Origin: an uncultured Pseudomonadota bacterium
GTDB taxonomy: Bacteria > Pseudomonadota > Alphaproteobacteria > RF32 > CAG-239
Reading direction: 5' to 3'
DNA length: 64,000 bases
Assembly (NCBI GenBank): GCA_902799835.1
Contig: CADCCF010000002.1
Location: 7,338 to 71,337, forward strand
Below the pieces are notes generated by a model. The model saw nothing but the letters and a program-made list of their open reading frames with translations, searched no databases and was not told the origin of the DNA. This document shows positions 195-15,750 of the stretch, in pieces (the stretch's first letter is position 1; each line of letters begins with the position of its first letter). Both the position numbers and the translations under genes were made by a program.

Positions 195-312
195 AACAGC
201 CCCCTTTTTTATTTATCATAGCTTTTTATTTTATAAAAAACAAACACTATGTCATTTTTTGACGCATTTGTGTTCTAATTTAATCTCATTATCAATAAAA
301 AAGGAGACTAAA

Positions 313-1284
313 ATGACAATCGTAACGCAAAATTTTAACCCGCCGCTTAAAGTTTGTTTGGGCAACGAAAAGTATTATACTGAAATAGAATCGCGCCAAT
401 GGGAAACAGAAGATAAAGGAGATTTTGTCGCAACAATTCAAAACTTGGGCTATATCGGGAACCGCCAAATTGAAGAGGTTTGGAAACATTACCATAACGA
501 ATATTATATCAGCAACTATGGTTATATTGTAAAAATTGCTAAAGAGGATGCCGAAATTGCCGATATTATAATACCTGACATATTAAAAAATGCTGATGAA
601 AATTCATCCGGTGTGCGTTGGCTCGATTTCTTAGAAGAAGTTAAGTTGTTGTTTCGCCGGAATGCTTATGTGCCTAAAAATCGAGAAAATTCAGGCTGTC
701 AAATTTGTCTTAACATTACCGGAAAAACTGCAGAATATGATATTCATAAGTTGGTAGCACGGTTTTTCTTAAAGAAACCGGAAGATTATGCTAAGCATAG
801 CTATGTTGTCCACCATATTGATAATAATTCGTATAACAACAGTGTGACTAATTTAATTTATCTGAAAGCGGAGACGCATAAGGGTAATCAACATAAAATT
901 TATCATCCGATGTCTCATTCAGGTAAAAAAATTAAAATGAAAAAAATAGTTTTAGACACCGAAACAACGGGATTTTATCCCTTAAAAGGAGATAGAATTG
1001 TTGAAATCGGGGCACTGGAGTTGGATGAAAATGATTGCCCGACCGGACAAACATTTCATACTTACATCAATCCGGAGTGTGAAGTATCGGAAGAAGCCGT
1101 AAAAATACACGGATTAACCAACAATTTTTTAAAAGATTATCCGACTTTCGTTGATATAAAAGACGAATTTTTGCGCTTTATTGAGGGCAAAGCCTTAATT
1201 GCACATAATCTTTCCTTTGATTTAGGATTTTTAGAGCATGAATTAGGTTTCAATTTGCCAAACAAAATGATTGATACCTTGTAA
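313..1284 (+). CDS. Fusion protein: NUMOD4 motif plus HNH_3 (phage/homing-endonuclease-type HNH) N-terminal half, DnaQ-like DEDD 3'-5' exonuclease C-terminal half. The reading frame is cut by an in-frame TAA at 1282-1284.
   Basis: SD AAGGAG 7 nt upstream of ATG 313. NUMOD4-like EEVWKHYHNEYYISNYGYIVKIA. HNH_3-like YDIHKLVARFFLKKPEDYAKHSYVVHHIDNNSYNNSVTNLIYLKAETHKGNQH. Exo I is IVLDTETTGF and Exo II is LIAHNLSFDLGFL. Confidence 0.6.
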   Translation: MTIVTQNFNPPLKVCLGNEKYYTEIESRQWETEDKGDFVATIQNLGYIGNRQIEEVWKHYHNEYYISNYGYIVKIAKEDAEIADIIIPDILKNADENSSGVRWLDFLEEVKLLFRRNAYVPKNRENSGCQICLNITGKTAEYDIHKLVARFFLKKPEDYAKHSYVVHHIDNNSYNNSVTNLIYLKAETHKGNQHKIYHPMSHSGKKIKMKKIVLDTETTGFYPLKGDRIVEIGALELDENDCPTGQTFHTYINPECEVSEEAVKIHGLTNNFLKDYPTFVDIKDEFLRFIEGKALIAHNLSFDLGFLEHELGFNLPNKMIDTL

Positions 1285-1431
1285 ATAGCAAAAAAATCTT
1301 TTCCCGATACTATATGTTCCTTGGATGCACTTTGCAAAATATTCAAAATAAATCCAAAAGCTAAAAATGCTCAAGGCGCATTGCTTGATGTTATGTGCTT
1401 GGCAGAAGTTTATCAAAAATTGGCAAAATAA
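1285..1431 (+). pseudogene. In-frame continuation (48 codons) of the DnaQ-like exonuclease domain after the TAA stop. It contains Exo III-like QGALLDVMCLAEVY with the catalytic His replaced by Gln. The 313..1431 gene is therefore a likely pseudogene or recoded gene.
   Basis: Same frame as 313..1284. The sequence ...MIDTL*IAKKSFPDTICSLDALCKIFKINPKAKNAQGALLDVMCLAEVYQKLAK* matches the canonical C-terminal part of DnaQ-type domains (DTLxLAKKxFP...LDALC...HGALxDAxxxAxVY). Confidence 0.5.
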
Positions 1432-1490
1432 AGTTGCTTTAAGCGGATTTTAGACTATCATAATGGTATTAGCTAAATTAAGGAGCAAAA

Positions 1491-2444
1491 ATGACTGGGA
1501 AATTTGATGTAACCAAATGCTTTGCAGATGATAGCGTAAACAAGCAAAAAGGAAAGTTTTGGGAAAACTTTCATAATCTAGATATAGAAAAATGGAAAGA
1601 AGATAAAAGAAAAATCTACTACGATAATAAATATTGTGATAAAGATGCTCTACCAGATCCCGATGCAACTAGCAAAAGTTTATATGATATACATCAAACA
1701 TTATGGAACCTTCAAAGTGAAAAATTTAACATTTCCGAAGTAATTCCTAACCCTAAAAAAGATTGTGAACTAATAATTAAAGAAAAGGATATTCATTTGG
1801 GTAGTGATTCCATAATGAGTATTTATTGGCATTGGGCTGGAAACAAAGTGCCGTTTAGCACAATGCAAAAACTTATTGAAAAAATAGGTAGTAGTATTCA
1901 AGAAAGAAAGGAATACAACGAACTTAAAAAAGAAATGAAAGAAAAAGGCTGTGATACAGAAAAATATTTACCAAACCAATTAAAAAATTTTATTTATCTA
2001 TATCTAAAAAAAGCCAATACAATTGGTGGATTTGTTGTTTTTCCAAAACATGATAAAAATATTAATGGTCGCAGAGGTATCTCTGCTAAAATACGAGATC
2101 GTTTTGACTTAACTCTTGAGTGTATAAAAAGAGGATATGAAAAAATTTTTGATGAAAACGACCTAAATAACCCTCTAGCTGATGTTCTAAAAGCTGATCA
2201 AGAATTTTTCAAAATGTTTGAATCTTTTGATAATTACATAAATTTCTTTTGCTTAAATTCTTGGATAGAAGATGGTCATGTTTTAAGCTTAATTGATAAC
2301 CAACACTTAGATAATTGGGATTTTAATAACGGTGAGCCTCTTCCGACAAAAGATAATTGGTGGACGTTTTATAAAAATATAATGAGCCGCCTTGATGCTC
2401 GTAATAAAGCTATTCAAGATCTATTTCCGGAGGAAAATAAATGA
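1491..2444 (+). CDS. Hypothetical 317-aa protein with no recognisable family. Second gene of the cassette.
   Basis: Long ORF with SD AAGGAG 7 nt upstream, 60 bp after the preceding gene. Its end overlaps the next start by 4 nt (ATGA). Confidence 0.6.
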   Translation: MTGKFDVTKCFADDSVNKQKGKFWENFHNLDIEKWKEDKRKIYYDNKYCDKDALPDPDATSKSLYDIHQTLWNLQSEKFNISEVIPNPKKDCELIIKEKDIHLGSDSIMSIYWHWAGNKVPFSTMQKLIEKIGSSIQERKEYNELKKEMKEKGCDTEKYLPNQLKNFIYLYLKKANTIGGFVVFPKHDKNINGRRGISAKIRDRFDLTLECIKRGYEKIFDENDLNNPLADVLKADQEFFKMFESFDNYINFFCLNSWIEDGHVLSLIDNQHLDNWDFNNGEPLPTKDNWWTFYKNIMSRLDARNKAIQDLFPEENK

Positions 2445-2935
2445 AATTTATAAAAATACTCGGCAAAAGCCTCTGGTTTGTAATAAAGCTCGCCTTTAAG
2501 ATTATCAAATTGCCTTTTGTTATTTTGATTTTCTTAGGTGGCGCCTCAAGCGGTGCAACTAGTGATGAAGCAACAATCAGCGATTATAATACCGGCAGAA
2601 CTTTATATAAAATAAAAGACGATCGTGTTGACGAATATGATACCGGGCGGACATTGTATAAAATTAATGGTAATTACTTTGAAGATGACTATAACGGTCG
2701 AACCATATATAAGCTCAATAATGATTATATTGAAGAGTATTCCAACGGTCGTAGTTTGTATAAAATAAAGGACAACTATATAGAAGAATATAGCACAGGA
2801 AACACATTGTACAGGATAAGAGATAATTACATTGAAGATTATAGCACCGGCAGAACCTTGTATAAAGTCGATGGCAAAATAACCGCATGGGTTATCATAA
2901 CCATTCTCATTTACGAAGGTATTTTGGAAAGATAA
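2441..2935 (+). CDS. Small membrane-anchored protein made of six tandem ~17-aa repeats with consensus Y-S/D-T-G-R-T-L-Y-K-I-x-D-N-Y-I-E-E.
   Basis: SD GGAGGA upstream and a 4-nt overlap with the upstream stop. N-terminal hydrophobic helix LPFVILIFLGG. A second hydrophobic stretch AWVIITILIY lies at the C-terminus. Confidence 0.6.
   Translation: MKFIKILGKSLWFVIKLAFKIIKLPFVILIFLGGASSGATSDEATISDYNTGRTLYKIKDDRVDEYDTGRTLYKINGNYFEDDYNGRTIYKLNNDYIEEYSNGRSLYKIKDNYIEEYSTGNTLYRIRDNYIEDYSTGRTLYKVDGKITAWVIITILIYEGILER
2581..2880 (+). repeat. Imperfect tandem ~51-bp coding repeats (x6) inside CDS 2441..2935.
   Basis: Repeated TGRTLYKI / NGRTIYKL / NGRSLYKI / TGNTLYRI / TGRTLYKV peptide units are visible in translation and as DNA periodicity. 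Confidence 0.55.
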
Positions 2936-3015
2936 TTTTAAAATTATTGCTTTTATTAATCAAGCAGATCAAGTCTAAATCAAGAATATGATACCGCCAA
3001 GCATCTAAAAATAGT

Positions 3016-3044
3016 TTGACTTGCAATCGAGATTATGTTATAAA
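3016..3044 (+). promoter_or_regulatory. Sigma70-like promoter TTGACT-17-TATAAA for the thrS-like gene, followed by a ~190-nt leader.
   Basis: TTGACT at 3016-3021, a 17-nt spacer and TATAAA at 3039-3044. Confidence 0.45.
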
Positions 3045-3092
3045 GACAATATGTTAAACGAAAGAGACATTTTTTTTCAATCATTTCAATTA

Positions 3093-3122
3093 CAGAACTT
3101 GCATGAAAGTTCTGCTTTTTGT
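3093..3122 (+). terminator. Terminator-like hairpin plus U-run inside the thrS-like leader. It is a possible attenuator. A second GC hairpin lies at 3149-3164.
   Basis: cagaactt-gcatga-aagttctg followed by cttttt. The second hairpin is caccgc-ttag-gcggtg. Confidence 0.35.
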
Positions 3123-3237
3123 GTTTCTTTAACCTTTACCGTAACCACCACCGCTTAGGCGGTGATATTTCTTTATTTCTGGATTTATATCCATACAAGT
3201 AATTTAAAGTTTAACAATTTTCGTAAAGGTTAGAAAA

Positions 3238-4512
3238 ATGAATAATAATATAGATGAAAAACAAAATATTTCCGAAAACGACCATCGTCGTATCGGTAAG
3301 GAACTGGACTTATTTTCTTTTAGTGATTATGTAGGATCCGGATTGGCTTTGTGGCATCCCAATGGCGCAATCATTAGAGGCGAAATAGAATCTTTTTGGA
3401 AAAAAGAACATCAAAAAGCCGGCTATAAATATGTCTATTCTCCGGTTGTCGGATTAAAACAGCTATGGGAAAAATCCGGTCATTTGGATCATTTTGCCGA
3501 CTGTATGTATCCGCCGATGGATATGTCCTTAAAGGATAAAGAAGAACAGGGGGCTTATTATGTTAAGCCGATGAGCTGTCCTTTTCATGTGGCAATTTAT
3601 AATGCTTCCGTACATTCATATAAAGAACTTCCGATTAAATATTGTGAACTTGGAAATGTTTATCGTTATGAAGCATCTGGCGGTCTGCAAGGACTATTGC
3701 GCGTTCGTTGCATTACGCAAGATGATGCGCATATTATCTGTCGTCAAGATCAGTTTATGGAAGAGCTTTCAAAGGTTTTGGACTTTGGTTTTGCTTTCAA
3801 TAAAGTCTTTGGCTATGATAAGTTTAAAGTATACTTTTCCATTCGTGATTTAAAAAACAAAAAGGATAAATATATTGAAAACGAGCCCGTTTGGCAAATG
3901 GCCGAGCAAGCGATAGAACAAGTCTTAAAAGACAAAAAACTTCCATATGATATAGATGTCGGAGGAGCAAAATTTTACGGACCGGCCATTGATGTCAAAG
4001 CCGTAGATGAAAATGGCAAGGAATGGCAATGTATGACGATTCAACTGGATATGAATTTGCCGGAAAAATGGGGAATGTCTTATATCGGTGAAGATGGTCA
4101 AAAGCACGTGCCGATTATGTTGCACCGCGCCATTTTAGGATCATTGGAGCGTTTTATCGGCGTATATTTGGAAAGATGCGAAGGTAAATTGCCGGTTTGG
4201 TTGTCACCGATTCAGGTCAAAATTTTACCGGTATCGGACAGGCACCAAGAACAAGCTCTGCAAATTCAAGAACAGCTACTGGCACAAGATATACGTGCTG
4301 AAGCTGATTTATCCAGCAATACGATTTCGTATCAAATCAGAAATGCGGTTAAAAAGAAAATTCCTTATGTTATTGTGATAGGAGACAAAGAAATTGAAAA
4401 TAATCATGTTTCTGTCAGATTGCGTAATGGTGAACAATTAGACGACATTCCGCTTGCTGATTTTATGAAACGTGTATCCGCAAAAATAAAAAACAAAAGT
4501 ATAGATTTGTAA
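3238..4512 (+). CDS. thrS: Threonyl-tRNA synthetase catalytic core plus anticodon-binding domain only (424 aa). The N-terminal TGS and editing domains are absent.
   Basis: Aligns with E. coli ThrRS from about residue 236 (DHRRIGKELDLF vs DHRKIGKQLDLY) through the C-terminus. Class II motifs are present: PMSCPFH, YRYEASGGLQGLLRVRCITQDDAHI and HRAILGSLERFIGVYLE. An in-frame upstream stop prevents N-terminal extension. Confidence 0.85.
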   Translation: MNNNIDEKQNISENDHRRIGKELDLFSFSDYVGSGLALWHPNGAIIRGEIESFWKKEHQKAGYKYVYSPVVGLKQLWEKSGHLDHFADCMYPPMDMSLKDKEEQGAYYVKPMSCPFHVAIYNASVHSYKELPIKYCELGNVYRYEASGGLQGLLRVRCITQDDAHIICRQDQFMEELSKVLDFGFAFNKVFGYDKFKVYFSIRDLKNKKDKYIENEPVWQMAEQAIEQVLKDKKLPYDIDVGGAKFYGPAIDVKAVDENGKEWQCMTIQLDMNLPEKWGMSYIGEDGQKHVPIMLHRAILGSLERFIGVYLERCEGKLPVWLSPIQVKILPVSDRHQEQALQIQEQLLAQDIRAEADLSSNTISYQIRNAVKKKIPYVIVIGDKEIENNHVSVRLRNGEQLDDIPLADFMKRVSAKIKNKSIDL

Positions 4513-4520
4513 AAGCAAAA

Positions 4521-4545
4521 ATCCTCCACAGAAGTGGGGGATTTT
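4521..4545 (+). terminator. Hairpin after thrS-like with a weak T-run.
   Basis: atcctccac-agaa-gtgggggat, then ttt. Confidence 0.35.
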
Positions 4546-4659
4546 ATGTATCATCATGCTGCTGGAATGTTCTTTCTTGACAAGGTTGTGTTTTTATATA
4601 GACTAAGCTTGTTAAATTATAATTATATCCAACAATTATTAATAAAAAATATTATTTCT

Positions 4660-5505: not shown

Positions 5506-6411
5506 ATGGTTAATATTATTGCCGCCGCCGTTGCCGCCGCTGTTAAGGAACGTCGTATAAGAGAGGAAGAACAAAGGCGATATAGAGAGGCTTTAAGAAT
5601 AGAAGAAGAAAGACGTCGTGAAGAAGAAAGACGTCGTGAAGAAGAAAGACGTCGTGAAGAAGAAAGACGTCGTGAAGAAGAGATTATTGATAAACAAAAG
5701 CGAAGGGCAGAAAATATAGCACGCAACCATCACAGGATATCAGATACGAATAACATCGGTGTAACAGATACGTCAATAACTTTTTTGGAAAAATATTACC
5801 ATCAGAAAGACGAATTATTAAGTGCCATAGTTTCTTCGGACGGCTATGAAAGTAAATGCGCCGACGGTTCGTCCATATTTTTTGGCAAAAATTACTACGT
5901 ACATAAGCTTACAAATGGAGTGCAGAGAATTTATGAAGACCGTGGAAGTTTGGTAAGACTTTGTCGAGAAGATATGCCGGATGGCCGGTCAAGAGTTTAC
6001 GGTGCTAAAGATGAGCATGGTACGCAGTTCACGGATGAAGATTGTTTCTTGCTGTATGAGTGTGATGCGAGCGGAAATTATAAACGCTATGGTGAAAAAG
6101 GCAAATACGGAAAATGGACGAGAACGGACGAAGTTGTGGAAGATGGTAAAATTAATACTTCTGAAATTCTGAATGATAATCAAATTTTTGCATATGAAGA
6201 ACTGAAAAAAGCCATTGAACGCGACGAAGTCGGATTGGATATGTTGAAAATTAAAAAAGAAATTTTACGTAAGAAACTTGGAGGTAAGACAGGTCAAACT
6301 GCAGATTCAAGAACAGGCGAAAAAACAGAAGAACATAAACAAACGGCAAAGACACATATTGATATTACCAAAGTTGTAATGAAAGTAGGGCGAGGACAGA
6401 ACATAAAGTAA
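5506..6411 (+). CDS. Hypothetical 301-aa protein with an N-terminal Ala-rich segment, an (EERRRE)x4 charged repeat and an uncharacterised C-terminal domain.
   Basis: Strong promoter and SD. The ORF ends before a long palindromic terminator. Confidence 0.6.
   Translation: MVNIIAAAVAAAVKERRIREEEQRRYREALRIEEERRREEERRREEERRREEERRREEEIIDKQKRRAENIARNHHRISDTNNIGVTDTSITFLEKYYHQKDELLSAIVSSDGYESKCADGSSIFFGKNYYVHKLTNGVQRIYEDRGSLVRLCREDMPDGRSRVYGAKDEHGTQFTDEDCFLLYECDASGNYKRYGEKGKYGKWTRTDEVVEDGKINTSEILNDNQIFAYEELKKAIERDEVGLDMLKIKKEILRKKLGGKTGQTADSRTGEKTEEHKQTAKTHIDITKVVMKVGRGQNIK
5605..5676 (+). repeat. Four perfect tandem copies of an 18-bp unit gaagaaagacgtcgtgaa (EERRRE) inside CDS 5506..6411.
   Basis: Exact repeats read directly at 5605-5622, 5623-5640, 5641-5658 and 5659-5676. 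Confidence 0.9.
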
Positions 6412-7824: not shown

Positions 7825-7873
7825 ATACTATATCTAGTATATTTACTTTTTGTTAAGACTATATATTGTATGT
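7825..7873 (+). promoter_or_regulatory. Two NrdR-box-like 16-bp palindromes with centres 32 bp apart, upstream of nrdD.
   Basis: ATACTATATCTAGTAT at 7825-7840 and ACTATATATTGTATGT around 7858-7873. They are compared with the NrdR-box consensus (acaCwAtATaTwGtgt) from established knowledge. Confidence 0.4.
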
Positions 7874-7933
7874 TATCAGCAACAGAGCAAAAAATGGTTT
7901 AATCTTTTAAGCAGTGAAAGAAAGACAATAGAA

Positions 7934-9994
7934 ATGACTAAAGCAACCGCAAAAAATTCATCTGCCGCCGAAGAAAATATCGGCATCGCTCAAATTTCAA
8001 AACGCGATGGTACATTGGCTCCTTTCGATTCAGAGAGAATCTTTAATGCTATTAACAAAGCAGGTTCTGCCACCAAAGAATTTGATGAGGATGAAAGCCG
8101 TCTGTTAACCGCTCAGGTTTTGAAGGTTTTGAAACATAAGTTCTCTGCAAAAAATTTGCCTTCAATCGAACAAATTCAAGATATTGTTGAGCAGGTTTTG
8201 ATTTCGGCTAACTATTTTAACACCGCCAAGGCCTACATTTTGTATCGTGACCAACGCACCCGCGTTCGCCAAGACAACAAAGTTATGGTTGATGTTGAGA
8301 GTTCGGTTAATGAATATTTGGAAAAGTTGGATTGGCGTATTAATGAAAATGCCAACCAAGGTTATTCCAATGGTGGATTGATTTTGAATGTTGCCGGTAA
8401 GGTAACTGCCAATTATTGGTTGAGCCATGTTTATCCGGCAGCTATCGGTGAGGCTCACCGCAATGGTGATTTTCATATCCATGATTTGAGCATGTTGGCA
8501 GCTTATTGTGCCGGTTGGTCATTAAAGAATCTTCTTCATGAAGGTTTTAACGGAGTTCCCGGCAAAGCTGAGGCTGGACCGGCCAAACACTTAAGTGCCG
8601 CAGTTGGTCAGATGGTTAACTTTATGGGTACTTTGCAAAATGAGTGGGCGGGAGCTCAGGCTTTTTCATCAGTTGATACCTATCTTGCTCCTTATGTTCG
8701 CAAAGATAAATTGTCATATAAACAAGTATATCAGAGCATGCAGGAATTGATTTATAACTTAAACGTTCCTTCTCGTTGGGGTTCACAAACACCTTTCACT
8801 AACTTCACTTTCGATTGGGTTTGTCCGGAAGATTTGCGTGATAAACATCCTTTGATTGCTGGTGTTGAACAAGACTTCACCTATGGCGATTTAAAAGACG
8901 AGATGCACATGATTAACAAAGCCTACATCGAAGTTATGATGAAAGGCGATACCAAAGGTCGTCCGTTTACCTTCCCGATTCCCACCTATAATATGACACC
9001 TGATTTTCCGTGGGAAGACGAAAACACTGAATTGTTGTTCGAAATGACCGCCAAATACGGCTTGCCTTATTTCCAGAACTTTATCAATTCTGTATTAAAA
9101 CCCGGTCAAATTCGTTCAATGTGTTGCCGTCTGCAATTAGACTTGCGCGAATTGTTGGCTCGCGGCAACGGCTTGTTTGGCTCGGCTGAACAAACCGGTT
9201 CAATTGGTGTTGTTACCATCAACTGCGCTCGTTTGGGCTATGTTTACAAAGGCAACGAAGCCGGTCTTTATGCTCGTTTGGATGAATTGATGGATATGGC
9301 CAAGGTATCCTTGGAAATCAAACGTAAACTCATTCAGCGCCTGATTGACCAAGGATTATTCCCTTATACCAAACGTTATTTGGGAACTTTACGCAACCAC
9401 TTCTCAACCATTGGTGTTAATGGCATCAACGAGATGATTAGAAACTTCACCAATGATGAACACGAAATTGCCGATGAATGGGGACAAGCTTTTGCTGTTA
9501 AATTCTTGGATTATATTCGCGATCGTTTGGTCAAAATTCAAGAAGAAACCGGTCATATGTATAACCTCGAAGCCACTCCGGCTGAGGGTGCAACAACTCG
9601 TTTTGCCCGTGAAGATAAAAAACGTTTTGCTGACATTATCCAAGCCGGTCCGAAAGAGAATCCTTTTTATACCAATTCATCACAGTTGCCGGTTGGCTAC
9701 ACCGATGATCCGTTTGAAGCTTTGGAATTACAATCAACTCTTCAAACCAAGTACACCGGAGGAACCGTGTTGCACCTTTACATGGGACAGCGTATTTCCT
9801 CAGCCAAAGTTTGTCGCGACATTGTAAAACGTGTTTTGACAAACTACCGGTTGCCTTATGTTACCATCACCCCGACTTTTTCCATTTGCCCAAAACATGG
9901 ATATATCTCGGGAGAACATAAATACTGCCCGATTTGTGATGAAGAAAAGAAGGCAGCAAAAAGAGCCGCAGCATCAAGAAAAGATGTTGCTTAA
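7934..9994 (+). CDS. nrdD: Anaerobic ribonucleoside-triphosphate reductase large (catalytic) polypeptide with an N-terminal ATP-cone. The glycyl-radical motif is not in this ORF.
   Basis: ATP-cone ISKRDGTLAPFDSERIFNAINKAG and a class III RNR body. It ends in a Cys/His cluster CPKHGYISGEHKYCPIC. The start was set at the internal ATG 7934 of track ORF 7850. Confidence 0.85.
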   Translation: MTKATAKNSSAAEENIGIAQISKRDGTLAPFDSERIFNAINKAGSATKEFDEDESRLLTAQVLKVLKHKFSAKNLPSIEQIQDIVEQVLISANYFNTAKAYILYRDQRTRVRQDNKVMVDVESSVNEYLEKLDWRINENANQGYSNGGLILNVAGKVTANYWLSHVYPAAIGEAHRNGDFHIHDLSMLAAYCAGWSLKNLLHEGFNGVPGKAEAGPAKHLSAAVGQMVNFMGTLQNEWAGAQAFSSVDTYLAPYVRKDKLSYKQVYQSMQELIYNLNVPSRWGSQTPFTNFTFDWVCPEDLRDKHPLIAGVEQDFTYGDLKDEMHMINKAYIEVMMKGDTKGRPFTFPIPTYNMTPDFPWEDENTELLFEMTAKYGLPYFQNFINSVLKPGQIRSMCCRLQLDLRELLARGNGLFGSAEQTGSIGVVTINCARLGYVYKGNEAGLYARLDELMDMAKVSLEIKRKLIQRLIDQGLFPYTKRYLGTLRNHFSTIGVNGINEMIRNFTNDEHEIADEWGQAFAVKFLDYIRDRLVKIQEETGHMYNLEATPAEGATTRFAREDKKRFADIIQAGPKENPFYTNSSQLPVGYTDDPFEALELQSTLQTKYTGGTVLHLYMGQRISSAKVCRDIVKRVLTNYRLPYVTITPTFSICPKHGYISGEHKYCPICDEEKKAAKRAAASRKDVA

Positions 9995-10037: not shown

Positions 10038-10256
10038 ATGACAACTATTAATTTTGAAGACATTAAATTGAGCGATGAAGAGAGACAACCTTGTGAAGTA
10101 TGGACAAGAGTTATGGGTTATCTTCGTCCTTATTCTGAGTTCAATGTAGGCAAAAAGTCTGAATTTGATTCGCGTGTTTGCTTCTCAGAACTCAAAGCAG
10201 TTAATGGCTGCGCTTGTCATTGTGAATGTGATGTTGAAGCTATTGCGGCAGAATAA
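10038..10256 (+). CDS. Small 72-aa protein carrying the NrdD-type glycyl-radical loop (TRVMGYLRP) and a Cys-rich tail. It is the separately encoded C-terminal piece of NrdD.
   Basis: Own SD GGAG 9 nt upstream of ATG 10038 and 43 nt after the nrdD stop. Sequence MTTINFEDIKLSDEERQPCEVWTRVMGYLRPYSEF...CACHCECD. Confidence 0.65.
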   Translation: MTTINFEDIKLSDEERQPCEVWTRVMGYLRPYSEFNVGKKSEFDSRVCFSELKAVNGCACHCECDVEAIAAE

Positions 10257-11133: not shown

Positions 11134-11808
11134 ATGATTACAAATGAAGATGCTGCTAGATTATTTGAACAACCGACCATCGAAGCCATCCCTAGTGATA
11201 TGAAACGTATTATAATTCCGGCTTACGGATTTGCTGGAGCTAAAGATGCAAAGAGGCAAGAATGGGGTGCTGATGGTCCGTTTATGGAAGATGTTAAAGG
11301 TCTTGTTTTCAAGAATCCTAAGGATGATGCTGATCAAGTATTAAAACAAGGCGATGGAGTTTTGATTTGTTATGATGCCCCTGGTCGCAAAGAGAAAATT
11401 GAACAATATTTGAAAGATAATCCGTCCACCTTTATGACCGCAGGACAAGTGCAAAGGTTTATTGATTATTTGACTACAAATGTTGTTAATGAAGGTGGAA
11501 AAGCTGATTTATGGGATTCAGACTTAGCTTTTGCTTCTGGATTAAAAGATGCACCAGCGAAAGAAGAAATGAAACCGGGAATGGTTTTCACCGGAGTTAA
11601 GAAAAAGGAAGCTGTTCAAGCTGTGTTTGTTAAAGAGGGAGTACAGTTTGAAGGAGCTGAGGGTAAACCCCAAACTGCTGGTAAGGATGGAGCATATATA
11701 ATTAAAGATAGTGCCGGATTAAGAATGATTCAAAAAGCCGAGTTTGCCAAGGCTTATCAAATTACCAAGATACCTCCGGTTCAATCAAATGACAAAGTCA
11801 GAGGTTAA
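11134..11808 (+). CDS. Hypothetical soluble protein (224 aa).
   Basis: SD AAGGAG upstream. A terminator follows. Confidence 0.55.
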   Translation: MITNEDAARLFEQPTIEAIPSDMKRIIIPAYGFAGAKDAKRQEWGADGPFMEDVKGLVFKNPKDDADQVLKQGDGVLICYDAPGRKEKIEQYLKDNPSTFMTAGQVQRFIDYLTTNVVNEGGKADLWDSDLAFASGLKDAPAKEEMKPGMVFTGVKKKEAVQAVFVKEGVQFEGAEGKPQTAGKDGAYIIKDSAGLRMIQKAEFAKAYQITKIPPVQSNDKVRG

Positions 11809-13046: not shown

Positions 13047-14414
13047 TTATATTTTTTTCCAAGTAGTTCCGGTCGAGGAATCTTCCAAAACAATACCTTG
13101 AGCCTTCAGGTCATCACGAATTTTGTCGGCCAAAGCAAAATTTTTGTTCTTTTTAGCTTCTTTGCGCTCAGCTATCAATTTTTCAATTTCTTGAGCTTCG
13201 TCAGTCGATTCGCCTTTAAACCAAATTGAAGGATCTTGATATAGCAAACCCAGCAATTCGGCCGATGCCAACAGCAAAGATTTTTTATCCATCATACTTT
13301 TTTCATCAGAAGCTTTATTCAAATCACCGACCAATTCATGAATATAGCTCAAAGCCAGTGGTGTGTTAAGGTCATCTTCCAAAGCTTTTACTACTCTTTC
13401 ATCAGGTGCAACATCTTGCTTAGCAATGTCCTTAACCCGCAACAAAGCATTATAAAATTTATCCAAAGTTTGTTTTGCTGCTTCCAAGCCGTCAAAAGTA
13501 AAGTTGAACGGTTGGTGATAATGTGTCGTTAAAAAAGTCAAACGCAAAGCTTCGGCAGGTACCTTGTCCAAAATCTGGTCAATAGTATAAAAATTACCCA
13601 AAGATTTTGACATTTTAACCCCGTTAACCATCAGCATACCGCCATGAACCCAATAATGAGCAAAGTCATCATTAGGGTGGGCACACATTGATTGAGCACA
13701 CTCATTTTCGTGGTGCGGAAATATCAAATCAGAGCCGCCACCATGAATATCAAACGAATTGCCCAACAATTTTGCGCTCATTGCCGAACATTCCAAATGC
13801 CAACCCGGACGACCAAACCCCCAAGGGCTGTTCCACCCCGGTTGAGTTTCATCAGATGGCTTCCATAACACAAAATCTTCCGGATTCTTTTTGTAATCAG
13901 CGACTTCGATTCGTGCCCCTGCCAACATCTCTTTGCGTGAACGTTTGGATAAAAATCCGTAGTTTGACATCGATTCTACATCAAACAAAACATGACCTTT
14001 TGCTTCATAGGCATGACCGTTTTTGATTAATAATTCTACTAATTCAATCATCTCATTGATATACTCGGTTGCCTTGGGGCGGTGGTTGGGTGGCAAAACA
14101 TTCAGCCGTGCCATATCATCTATATACCACTGATAAGTCTGCTCGGTAATTTCCTTAATCGATTTTCCGGTAGCAATAGATTTGTTGATAATCTTATCAT
14201 CAATATCTGTAATATTGGAAACATAAGTCACATGCTCTTTGCCGTATATATGACGTAACAAGCGGTATAAAATATCAAATACCACCGGTGTTTTAATGTT
14301 TCCCAAATGAGCATGGTCATAAACTGTCGGACCGCATACATACATTCTGACATTATTTGCGTCAATCGGCTTAAACTCTTCTTTTAACCCGCTTAATGTA
14401 TTAAAAATTTGCAT
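13047..14414 (-). CDS. cysS: Cysteinyl-tRNA synthetase.
   Basis: HLGN (HIGH-type) and KMSKS motifs. Confidence 0.92.
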   Translation of the reverse strand: MQIFNTLSGLKEEFKPIDANNVRMYVCGPTVYDHAHLGNIKTPVVFDILYRLLRHIYGKEHVTYVSNITDIDDKIINKSIATGKSIKEITEQTYQWYIDDMARLNVLPPNHRPKATEYINEMIELVELLIKNGHAYEAKGHVLFDVESMSNYGFLSKRSRKEMLAGARIEVADYKKNPEDFVLWKPSDETQPGWNSPWGFGRPGWHLECSAMSAKLLGNSFDIHGGGSDLIFPHHENECAQSMCAHPNDDFAHYWVHGGMLMVNGVKMSKSLGNFYTIDQILDKVPAEALRLTFLTTHYHQPFNFTFDGLEAAKQTLDKFYNALLRVKDIAKQDVAPDERVVKALEDDLNTPLALSYIHELVGDLNKASDEKSMMDKKSLLLASAELLGLLYQDPSIWFKGESTDEAQEIEKLIAERKEAKKNKNFALADKIRDDLKAQGIVLEDSSTGTTWKKI

Positions 14415-14427
14415 AAAATCTCTCCTG

Positions 14428-15750
14428 TTAAGCCTTTTGTCCGTTCAGACGAGCTTTTGCTTTGGTGTGACCGATAAATTTCAACAAAACTTTTAATTCC
14501 GGTCCGTTTTCTAATCCGCTTAATGCCATACGTAAAGGATGGAACAAATCTTTACCTTTTTTGCCGGTTTCTTGCTTTATAGCACTAATCCAATTATTGT
14601 AGGCATCGTCTGTTGTCAAATCAGTCGGTAACACTTCGGCCGCTTTTGCGCATAAATCTTTATCTTCAATAACCGGTGAAACTTCAGCAAAACAAACATT
14701 TTGCCAAGTTGCAGCCTCTGCAACCGTATTAAGATTGCCTTTAATAGCTTCCCAAAATTCTTCTGAAATATTTAAGCGATTTTTTATGTGACTGTACTTC
14801 AGCTGATGCACAACTTTATGGTTAAACAACTTCAGTTCTTCTTCATCAAATTTGGGCTGAGAACGACCGAGTTTGCTAAAGTCTAATGATTGTGCTAAAT
14901 CGTCCAAATTATCCCATGGCTCGATTACCTCTGAAGTACCTAATTTAGCCAAAAAGGCACAAATTGCCATATTCTCGATTCCCATCGCGCGCAATTCTCT
15001 AACCCCAAGTGAACCAAGGCGTTTAGATAATTTGCCTTCTTTACCGGTCAACAATGGCAAATGTGCAAACTGAGGAGCTTTACCCCCCAAGGCTTCAAAC
15101 ATTTGGATTTGTGCTGCAGTATTGGTAACGTGATCTTCGCCGCGTACAATATGGGTGATGCCAAAATCAAAGTCATCTATAACCGACGGAAGATGGTACA
15201 AATAACTGCCATCTTCACGAATAATTACCGGATCAGCTAAATTGGCGGCATTATATTGGATATGTCCTCTTACCAAATCGTCCCACGCAATAACACCTTC
15301 GTTCAGTTTAAAGCGATAGTGTGGTTTGCGTCCTTCGGCTTCATAGCGGGCAATATCTTCTTTTGATAATTTCAAAGCTCCGCGATCATAAATTGGCGGT
15401 TTGCCTTGTGTCATAAGCTTTTTACGCATGACTTCCAATTCTTCGGCAGTTTCATAGCACGCATAGATTCTACCCTGCTCTTTTAATTGAGCGACAACTT
15501 CATCATAGCGTTTGGTGCGTGCCGATTGTCTGGCTTCCTCGTCCCAAGTAAGTCCTAACCATACTAAAATATCTCTAATAGCATCTTCATATTCTTTTTT
15601 GGATCGAACAACATCGGTATCGTCGATTCTCAACATAAACTTTCCGCCTAACTTTTTTGCCAAAAGCCAGTTAAAAACGGCTGTTCTGGTGTTACCGATA
15701 TGCATCCACCCCGTAGGACTTGGCGCAAATCTGACTTTAATATCACTCAT
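14428..15750 (-). CDS. gltX: Glutamyl-tRNA synthetase (short, 440-aa form).
   Basis: RFAPSPTGWMHIGN HIGH region and KLSKR motif. Confidence 0.9.
   Translation of the reverse strand: MSDIKVRFAPSPTGWMHIGNTRTAVFNWLLAKKLGGKFMLRIDDTDVVRSKKEYEDAIRDILVWLGLTWDEEARQSARTKRYDEVVAQLKEQGRIYACYETAEELEVMRKKLMTQGKPPIYDRGALKLSKEDIARYEAEGRKPHYRFKLNEGVIAWDDLVRGHIQYNAANLADPVIIREDGSYLYHLPSVIDDFDFGITHIVRGEDHVTNTAAQIQMFEALGGKAPQFAHLPLLTGKEGKLSKRLGSLGVRELRAMGIENMAICAFLAKLGTSEVIEPWDNLDDLAQSLDFSKLGRSQPKFDEEELKLFNHKVVHQLKYSHIKNRLNISEEFWEAIKGNLNTVAEAATWQNVCFAEVSPVIEDKDLCAKAAEVLPTDLTTDDAYNNWISAIKQETGKKGKDLFHPLRMALSGLENGPELKVLLKFIGHTKAKARLNGQKA

Follow-up and report, generated by a model that had tools for sequence, protein, structure and literature searches.

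The window analysed here is a stretch of 64,000 nucleotides (39% G+C) on contig CADCCF010000002.1 of an uncultured Pseudomonadota bacterium, and it harbours a gene for threonyl-tRNA synthetase (ThrRS), thrS, that encodes a shortened enzyme. The coding sequence (3238-4512, forward strand, ATG start) specifies 424 amino acids, comprising a class II catalytic core and an anticodon-binding domain, without the TGS domain and the N2 editing domain. The gene is preceded by its own promoter and by a leader that contains a threonine-rich open reading frame (ORF), and it is followed by an intrinsic terminator (4515-4549, forward strand) with the core ATCCTCCAC-AGAA-GTGGGGGAT and the tract TTTTAT, which folded with -18.8 kcal/mol. 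The stretch from 3016 to 4545 thus spans the -35 hexamer to the terminator hairpin of thrS itself. For comparison we fetched related loci, which are named L001, L004 and so on, with W for the window locus. The truncated family is represented by 17 loci, and its gene was recovered in 16 species-level metagenome-assembled genomes (MAGs).

A Pfam search of the 424-residue ThrRS revealed tRNA-synt_2b (PF00587) at residues 101-312 (3e-38) and HGTP_anticodon (PF03129) at residues 326-415 (8e-22), and no third domain. The NCBIfam thrS equivalog model TIGR00418 was matched with 506.7 bits (cutoff 383.65; 1e-151), in an alignment that covers only profile positions 160-564 of 565. Among solved structures, residues 238-634 of S. 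aureus ThrRS gave the top match (1e-106), and a crystallised fragment of the E. coli enzyme, 242-642, matched at about 1e-96. The best structures cover query residues 14-422. The D of DHRRIGKELDLF, which is query residue 15, corresponds to residue 2 of the E. coli 242-642 construct. The Pfam, TIGR00418 and structure matches therefore show that the protein consists of the catalytic core and the anticodon-binding domain, preceded by an N-terminal tail of 14 residues. This is the architecture that the initial annotation of this DNA had read from the gene, including a start at the linker that precedes the catalytic core. The zinc ligands of the E. coli enzyme, Cys334, His385 and His511, align to C114, H165 and H296, and Asp383 aligns to D163. 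All four residues are invariant in an alignment with relatives (A3), as are R143 of motif 2 and the GSLERF of motif 3. We infer that the 424-residue protein is a genuine, functional ThrRS that would charge tRNA-Thr.

Neither TGS (PF02824) nor N2 (PF07973, tRNA_SAD) was matched by Pfam in the 424-residue protein, and the alignment places its start after the N2 of its relatives. The 302 nt upstream of thrS (2936-3237) contain no sequence that would encode an N-terminal part of ThrRS, and tblastn searches of the window with N2 and TGS+N2 queries found nothing. The earlier deduction that proofreading by N2 is absent agrees with these searches, as neither the protein nor the window contains this domain. 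Post-transfer clearing of Ser-tRNA-Thr would not be expected from this enzyme, as N2 is gone.

In protein searches we found about 25 clusters of 423-433 residues with 69-88% identity to the window ThrRS. Beyond a gap follow proteins of about 596-600 residues with 55-63% identity, which contain tRNA_SAD (N2) and are devoid of TGS. A scan with one genome per species recovered the truncated thrS in 16 MAGs at 72-94% identity, all labelled (Alpha)proteobacteria, and isolate names place most of these MAGs in rumen or gut samples. The identical 424-residue protein is also encoded on several metagenome contigs, one of 254 kb. All 17 truncated genes share the same start, a short Asn-rich tail followed by DHRRIGKELDLF, and all 63 other thrS loci that were fetched carry an N-terminal extension of at least 160 residues before the DHRRIGKELDLF-type motif. 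Since the same start recurs in 16 independent assemblies and in about 25 clusters, chance and assembly error are excluded. A misassembly that removed the 5′ part of the gene, which had been raised as a possible objection, can hence be set aside.

The nearest longer relative is cluster P0027 (598 residues, 63% identity), which has two members named 'Alphaproteobacteria bacterium' MAG proteins. Both sit in ordinary chromosomal contexts. The sister proteins of 596-598 residues keep the HxxxH and CxxxH editing motifs, and here too TGS is absent. In a neighbour-joining tree (410 shared columns, 100 bootstraps) the truncated proteins were monophyletic in 100 of 100 bootstraps and sat on a long branch, and their clade joined the group of 596-598 residues in 99 of 100. 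Next out were TGS-less enzymes of candidate-phyla-radiation bacteria (Microgenomates, Woesebacteria and Shapirobacteria). The tree indicates a single origin of the truncation, placed at the base of the monophyletic truncated group, and the simplest history would be a stepwise reduction, in which a TGS-less thrS ancestor was followed by a single loss of N2. The long branch after this loss may reflect compensatory change. Within the truncated clade, the pairwise ratio of non-synonymous to synonymous substitution rates (dN/dS) has a median of 0.04 and a maximum of 0.10, and most pairs are saturated at synonymous sites. These values indicate an old gene under strong constraint. Between W and L004 the ThrRS is 94% identical, compared with 95% for the cysteinyl-tRNA synthetase (CysRS).

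The upstream regions of thrS can be aligned in 17 of 17 loci from the -35 hexamer on, and the DNA further 5′ is unrelated. The promoter (3016-3044, forward strand) is composed of the -35 element TTGACT (3016-3021) and the -10 element TATAAA (3039-3044), which are separated by a spacer of 17 nt; TGn at the end of this spacer makes it an extended -10 promoter. This arrangement of -35, TGn and -10 is kept in 20 of 20 related loci. A simple promoter scan did not list it, because the rule of the scan demands a T at position 6 of the -10 element. The initial annotation had described a promoter of its own and a leader of about 190 nt for this gene. Both were read in the sequence again here, and the leader holds in addition a Thr-codon leader peptide that had been missed.

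The leader-peptide ORF (3051-3158, forward strand) has 35 codons and a TAG stop, and encodes MLNERDIFFQSFQLQNLHESSAFCVSLTFTVTTTA, ending in LTFTVTTTA. Its ACC threonine codons start at 3132, 3138, 3144, 3147 and 3150, so that five lie within the last nine codons. An equivalent ORF of 34-38 codons, ending in ..LT(F/L)T.TTTA, is present in all 17 truncated-family loci. The distance from the -10 element to the ATG of the leader ORF is 6-7 nt in 19 of 20 loci (6 nt in the window), and translation of the ORF therefore probably begins at the 5′ end of a transcript that is leaderless or almost so. All three sister-clade loci carry ORFs of 17-21 codons, ending in TTTTTA or TKTTTTA and using ACA, ACC, ACG and ACT. 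Because the sister ORFs use all four threonine codons, the selected property appears to be the threonine codons and not one RNA word. Furthermore, the gaps placed by MAFFT within the leader ORF are 3 nt long. In total, a Thr-rich upstream ORF was found in 20 of 20 truncated and sister loci, versus 1 of 63 other thrS loci. The presence of a leader peptide with threonine codons points to regulation by the supply of Thr-tRNA, and its presence upstream of thrS in the sister clade as well indicates that regulator and gene are orthologous.

A comparable arrangement was seen in L042, a MAG of the Pyrinomonadaceae (Acidobacteria). Upstream of a full-length thrS there lies, in the region of about 9015-9215, a mini-ORF, MLSKNFAGFITTTTR. 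A GC hairpin carries the stop codon of this ORF in its loop and is followed by a strong terminator. The same leader design may thus occur in another phylum, and may be more widespread and overlooked.

The leader RNA is predicted to fold into three hairpins and one long-range helix. Hairpin H1 (3093-3114, forward strand) is formed by CAGAACTT and AAGTTCTG inside the leader ORF, followed by the U-rich CTTTTTGTGTTTC, and resembles a terminator or a pause site. Compensatory changes were found at five of its eight pairs, 89% of cells in the alignment are paired, and the peptide encoded at H1 is unconserved where the stem covaries. Hairpin H2 (3149-3164, forward strand; CACCGC-TTAG-GCGGTG) is followed by a T-rich tract (3165-3179). 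Its 5′ arm consists of the last Thr codons and an Ala codon, and its loop holds the TAG stop of the leader ORF (3156-3158). H2 with its T-rich tract fits the pattern of a terminator, with a stem of only 6 bp and an interrupted U tract. It is nearly invariant (92.6% paired), and for that reason covariation is uninformative here. The sister loci L083-L085 share this design, including a loop that holds the stop codon and a T tract that follows. Hairpin H3 (3180-3193, forward strand; TGGAT-TTAT-ATCCA) shows compensatory changes at five of five pairs, with 91% of cells paired.

In addition, a segment of the leader ORF is complementary to the ribosome-binding region of thrS. This anti-Shine-Dalgarno (anti-SD; 3128-3139, forward strand) reads TTTAACCTTTAC, contains Thr codons 28 and 30 and pairs with GTAAAGGTTAGA at 3223-3234 (forward strand), which includes the Shine-Dalgarno (SD) sequence AAAGG at 3225-3229. 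The helix belongs to the minimum free energy fold of the leader (z = -4.5), and its predicted pairing probability in the free window leader RNA is 0.99. Duplex energies range from -7.5 to -15.6 kcal/mol across 17 of 17 truncated-family loci. All four core pairs covary, as seen in AACC:GGTT, GACC:GGTC, CAAACC:GGTTTG and AAACCTC:GAGGTTT. The sister-clade leaders are without an anti-SD, and H2 is therefore the ancestral part of the leader.

For the covariation test, 18 sequences were aligned with a covariance model and fitted to the structure proposed here; 500 shuffles and slid partners served as controls. In this alignment 83% of cells are paired, compared to about 40% with slid partners, and 17 pairs show changes on both sides. 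On four of five measures none of the 500 shuffles reached the observed value, and for the fifth, further pair types, five of 500 did. When the leader covariance model (R1) was searched against 68 other thrS loci, only chance matches on AT-rich terminators were obtained.

Known thrS regulators were looked for as well. Rfam gave no match in the window at its gathering threshold, and in 2900-3300 no match appeared even when E-values up to 10 were allowed. A T-box riboswitch in the leader was ruled out, as no Rfam covariance model matched. The loops of H1 (GCATGA), H2 (TTAG) and H3 (TTAT) carry no Thr anticodon, and for lack of anticodon-like loops an E. coli-type thrS operator, with NGU in a 7-nt loop near the SD, was ruled out too. 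The mechanism of the E. coli operator moreover needs the N-terminal domain of ThrRS, which is absent from the 424-residue enzyme. A further candidate helix joins AUGUUAAAC at the start of the leader ORF (3051-3059) to the complementary and conserved GUUUAACA (3209-3216), about 25 nt before the thrS SD. It was rejected since it is without compensatory support, although 90% of cells are paired. Such a pairing could hide the leader start codon once the full leader has been made.

To model the effect of translation on the leader, a ribosome footprint of 28 nt was placed on it and the remaining RNA was folded. In the window leader, an A site on any of the five Thr codons lowered the pairing probability of the SD from 0.99 to 0.16, and an A site on codons 32-34 abolished H2 as well. 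With the ribosome at codon 20 or at the stop codon, the SD pairing stayed at 0.99. Across loci, the effect of occlusion was clear in W, L013, L018 and L020 (about a third of the loci) and weak in others, in which the short A/U-rich helix does not dominate the predicted ensemble.

From these modelled folds we infer the direction of regulation. When charged tRNA-Thr is scarce, the ribosome would stall on the Thr codons of the leader. A stall at codons 28 or 30 would cover the anti-SD and free the thrS ribosome-binding site (translational attenuation), and a stall at codons 32-34 would cover the 5′ arm of H2, so that this terminator-like hairpin could not form (transcriptional attenuation by direct occlusion). 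Both effects would result in more ThrRS. With ample Thr-tRNA, the ribosome would reach the stop codon in the H2 loop and leave, H2 and the anti-SD:SD helix would re-form, and expression would fall. H1 may be a pause site at which ribosome and polymerase become coupled.

The conserved unit at this locus is promoter, leader, thrS and terminator, which together stand at the edge of a variable block. The gene order around thrS is common only to the closest relatives, W with L004 and L014 with L015, and L005 keeps part of it, namely the BOF gene and a homologue of 11134-11808. That thrS lies in accessory surroundings, as had been proposed earlier, was thus confirmed, since the neighbouring genes are poorly conserved and synteny exists only among the nearest relatives. 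The initial annotation had also stated that its picture of an accessory copy would fall if all close relatives had the same truncated gene as their only thrS in a syntenic core context. All close relatives do share the truncated gene, whereas the synteny does not extend beyond the nearest ones.

On balance we lean towards the view that this gene encodes the regulated working ThrRS of an uncultured gut and rumen clade, equipped with a threonine leader-peptide switch. The least certain part of this view is that thrS provides the only, housekeeping ThrRS of the cell. A primary role would be favoured by the clade-wide presence of the gene, by its core-like conservation and by its orthology, leader included, with a complete editing enzyme in the sister clade. 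The lineage would then tolerate unedited Ser-for-Thr errors or correct them via another factor. A more far-reaching version, which we put forward tentatively and rate slightly below even, holds that the editing-less enzyme is the only ThrRS of this free-living clade. It would then be the first bacterial enzyme in nature to parallel the one of yeast mitochondria, with a leader that acts on terminator hairpin and ribosome-binding site, and with proteome-wide Ser-for-Thr errors that are either tolerated or compensated by the catalytic core. Compensating discrimination in the core fits the long branch after the loss of N2.

Ser-tRNA-Thr editing by ThrRS is regarded as important for bacterial fitness. 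Several points weigh against a working ThrRS with the proposed switch. It has been argued that a misacylating ThrRS is counter-selected as a housekeeping enzyme (Rubio et al., PMC4787780). The CysRS from the window has more than 120 clusters at identities of at least 76%, versus about 25 for ThrRS at identities of at least 69%, and by these counts the truncated form marks only a sub-lineage; as a gauge of the 'core' status of thrS they were dropped, because CysRS is too conserved to calibrate it. The neighbourhood is conserved only among the closest relatives. As for the switch, the covariation alignment was fitted to the structure that it supports, so the pairing is somewhat inflated, and the anti-SD:SD helix dominates the predicted ensemble only in W, L013, L018 and L020. 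No convincing antiterminator was found in the leader; the only antiterminator-like pairing visible by eye in the leader alignment, GTGGTT:AACCAC, is weak and poorly conserved. Finally, if the ribosome were tightly coupled, H2 is placed such that the sign of the transcriptional control could also be inverted.

The most serious competitor is a second, starvation-inducible ThrRS that acts beside a full-length editing enzyme encoded elsewhere, from which editing would come, possibly via heterodimers. Induction by the leader upon scarcity of Thr-tRNA suits an auxiliary copy equally well, and editing is more easily dispensed with in an enzyme that serves as a back-up. In Anabaena, the induced and editing-impaired ThrRS T2 is rescued in trans by T1 (PMC4787780). 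The place of thrS among variable genes and the closeness of the enzyme to those of the candidate-phyla radiation and of Clostridium type would also fit an extra copy that was acquired. However, searches of the window and of 318 kb of related loci, which is a small sample, revealed no second thrS, N2 or TGS, and the truncated gene is present in every species-level MAG recovered (16) and evolves like a core gene (dN/dS 0.04). In addition, the sister orthologue, which has a leader of this type too, encodes a complete editing enzyme, and a primary thrS would be expected to do so. We regard an inducible copy as possible but clearly less likely than a working ThrRS, and it keeps this weight because of the argument of Rubio et al. 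(PMC4787780) against a misacylating housekeeping ThrRS. An improbable variant, which overlaps with the working-enzyme view, is a split enzyme of the Sulfolobus type, in which a free-standing editor (N2, AlaX-like or YbaK/ProXp-type) acts in trans. It has a precedent in the Crenarchaea, and the catalytic-only ThrRS-1 of A. pernix (3a31) is among the PDB matches. A gene of the YbaK/tRNA_edit family lies about 3.5 kb upstream of the sister 596-residue thrS in L085 (3274-3750, reverse strand) and is a candidate trans-editing factor. Yet tblastn searches with N2, TGS+N2 and YbaK queries gave nothing in the window and the 16 related loci (318 kb), and when the sister N2 domain was the query, nothing but partial or frameshifted thrS genes came up among the 120 matches listed. 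Five contexts were viewed for a free-standing N2 domain; four had an adjoining catalytic part, and the fifth was ended by the contig end. N2 matches flanked by infC-rpmI-rplT are organised unlike the thrS of the truncated lineage. As the search was word-indexed and 120 matches were listed, the absence of a free-standing N2 is weak evidence. In L086-L089, which come from metagenome assemblies, thrS was called as two adjacent ORFs, an N2 part and a catalytic part, and some of the contig names look like those of long-read assemblers. These split calls are most likely frameshift errors, and such calls can pose as free-standing editing domains in databases.

The initial annotation had favoured an antibiotic self-resistance or immunity copy of the borrelidin (BorO) or obafluorin (ObaO) type, with a stress-induced duplicate and a trans-editing factor as alternatives, and had considered a horizontal origin. 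Its paralog-like look, its own promoter, the poorly conserved block next to tRNA-Pro and a ThrRS type nearest to the enzymes of candidate-phyla-radiation bacteria and Clostridium relatives would suit such a gene or a mobile resistance gene. Against it, no genes for polyketide synthases, non-ribosomal peptide synthetases or other biosynthetic enzymes were found within about 10 kb of thrS in the window or in L001, the two loci whose neighbouring genes were annotated; in the remaining 15 loci the surrounding genes were only matched against one another. Plasmids and phages hold no relatives above 45% identity and viral contigs hold none, and the truncated proteins form one clade in the neighbour-joining tree. 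Moreover, the identity spectrum of 72-94% with saturated synonymous sites fits old vertical descent and not recent spread, the leader would sense Thr codons and not a drug, and BorO and ObaO are full-length ThrRSs. A resistance function is thus largely refuted and very unlikely. Even less credit is due to the idea that the gene is an artefact or what remains of a pseudogene, or that its ThrRS-like product acts outside translation. Truncated synthetase-like genes do often serve other roles and the window shows no 5′ part, but the same start in 17 independent assemblies, a dN/dS of 0.04, the conserved promoter and leader directly upstream and the full set of catalytic and anticodon-domain hallmarks all speak for a ThrRS under selection.

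If the truncated gene were the sole ThrRS of the clade, this status would raise the importance of the enzyme. A bacterial clade that has kept such an enzyme under strong selection offers a natural test of how much mistranslation a bacterium bears and of how the catalytic core can compensate, and the N2-containing sister clade provides an internal control. With its leader, thrS would join the few synthetase genes under leader-peptide control, and our literature search found no report of a thrS leader peptide.

Among the genes around thrS, those upstream in the window encode an HNH-DEDDh exonuclease, a DUF6994 protein and a membrane repeat protein, with a WYL regulator further up. Directly upstream of thrS there may be a defence island (window 259-2935 and L001 5986-6957), in which the exonuclease combines HNH and DEDDh and is DEDDh / PDC-S48-like in PADLOC. 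The DUF6994 protein is only 46% identical between W and L004, and the membrane protein contains about six Y-x-TGRTLYKI repeats with a period of 51 nt. Downstream follow two unknown proteins, tRNA-Pro(GGG), BOF, NrdD/NrdG, CysRS and a GluRS-type synthetase. The unknown protein at 5506-6411 includes a perfect 18-nt tandem repeat at 5602-5681 (EERRRE, 4.4 copies). In L001, where thrS is identical, this gene is 357 nt (119 residues) longer, and hence it varies in length between near-identical strains. NrdD is split in the window, where an ORF of 714 residues (7850-9994) ends just past the zinc-finger cysteines and a separate ORF of 72 residues (10038-10256) bears the glycyl-radical motif (TRVMGYLRP); the two-gene arrangement is also found in L001 and L004. 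CysRS (455 residues) adjoins the GluRS/GlnRS-type synthetase (440 residues) at 13047-15750 on the reverse strand, in a core region about 9 kb from thrS.

Natural ThrRSs without an editing domain are documented from yeast mitochondria and, with a separate partner, from some archaea. By its domain content, the truncated ThrRS is the counterpart in nature of the E. coli 242-642 fragment and also resembles yeast MST1, and it would be expected to behave like these two enzymes. The engineered E. coli fragment (1evk, 1evl, 4hwo and others) has the identical boundary and the same two domains. Without its editing domain, E. coli ThrRS is a dimer with full amino-acid activation and less efficient tRNA charging (PMC4267643). 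In contrast to this construct, the window enzyme is natural, has long been kept by selection and sits on a long branch. The yeast mitochondrial enzyme (MST1/ScmtThrRS) naturally lacks the editing domain, and its compartment has no other ThrRS. In vitro it forms Ser-tRNA-Thr, and it depends on editing before transfer (PMC4267643). Its structure (3ugq) aligns to the window ThrRS at 7.6e-69. However, MST1 is organellar and serves the translation of a handful of proteins, whereas here a whole bacterial proteome would be exposed, and the two losses are independent. Crenarchaea, as summarised in PMC4267643 with reference to Korencic et al. 2004, combine a ThrRS-cat with a free-standing editing protein. 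A. pernix ThrRS-1 (3a31) has the same two domains as the window ThrRS and matches it at 1.1e-53. The crenarchaeal split ThrRS differs in having a separate editor of a different fold, and no such partner was found in the window or in the 16 related loci.

With regard to regulation, thrS and thrZ of Bacillus are controlled by T-boxes. The pairs T1/T2 of Anabaena (PMC4787780) and thrS/thrZ of B. subtilis resemble our case in that a back-up or editing-impaired ThrRS is induced under stress, in connection with the status of Thr-tRNA. T2 and ThrZ keep their N-terminal domains, though, and are induced by zinc limitation or a T-box, not by a leader peptide. The E. coli thr operon and pheST are leader-peptide attenuators, and in ermC a stalled ribosome frees a sequestered SD. 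With the attenuators the thrS leader shares a short ORF with a run of cognate codons, followed by a terminator-like hairpin. It is unlike them in that thrS is the regulated gene, the ORF is apparently leaderless, the regulatory codons lie in the 5′ arm of the terminator-like hairpin, the stop codon lies in its loop and no separate antiterminator is evident. This layout, with regulatory codons in a hairpin arm and an anti-SD and the stop in the hairpin loop, is unusually compact. Leader-peptide attenuators have been predicted for trpS and leuS, and in the LEU element of Actinobacteria a codon run upstream of leuA is predicted to pair with the SD of the downstream gene (PMC1262725). As in the LEU element and ermC, the SD of thrS is predicted to be sequestered, here by part of the leader ORF and in 17 of 17 loci, with a modelled relief that varies by locus, and the Thr codons embedded in this anti-SD too suggest a control at two levels.

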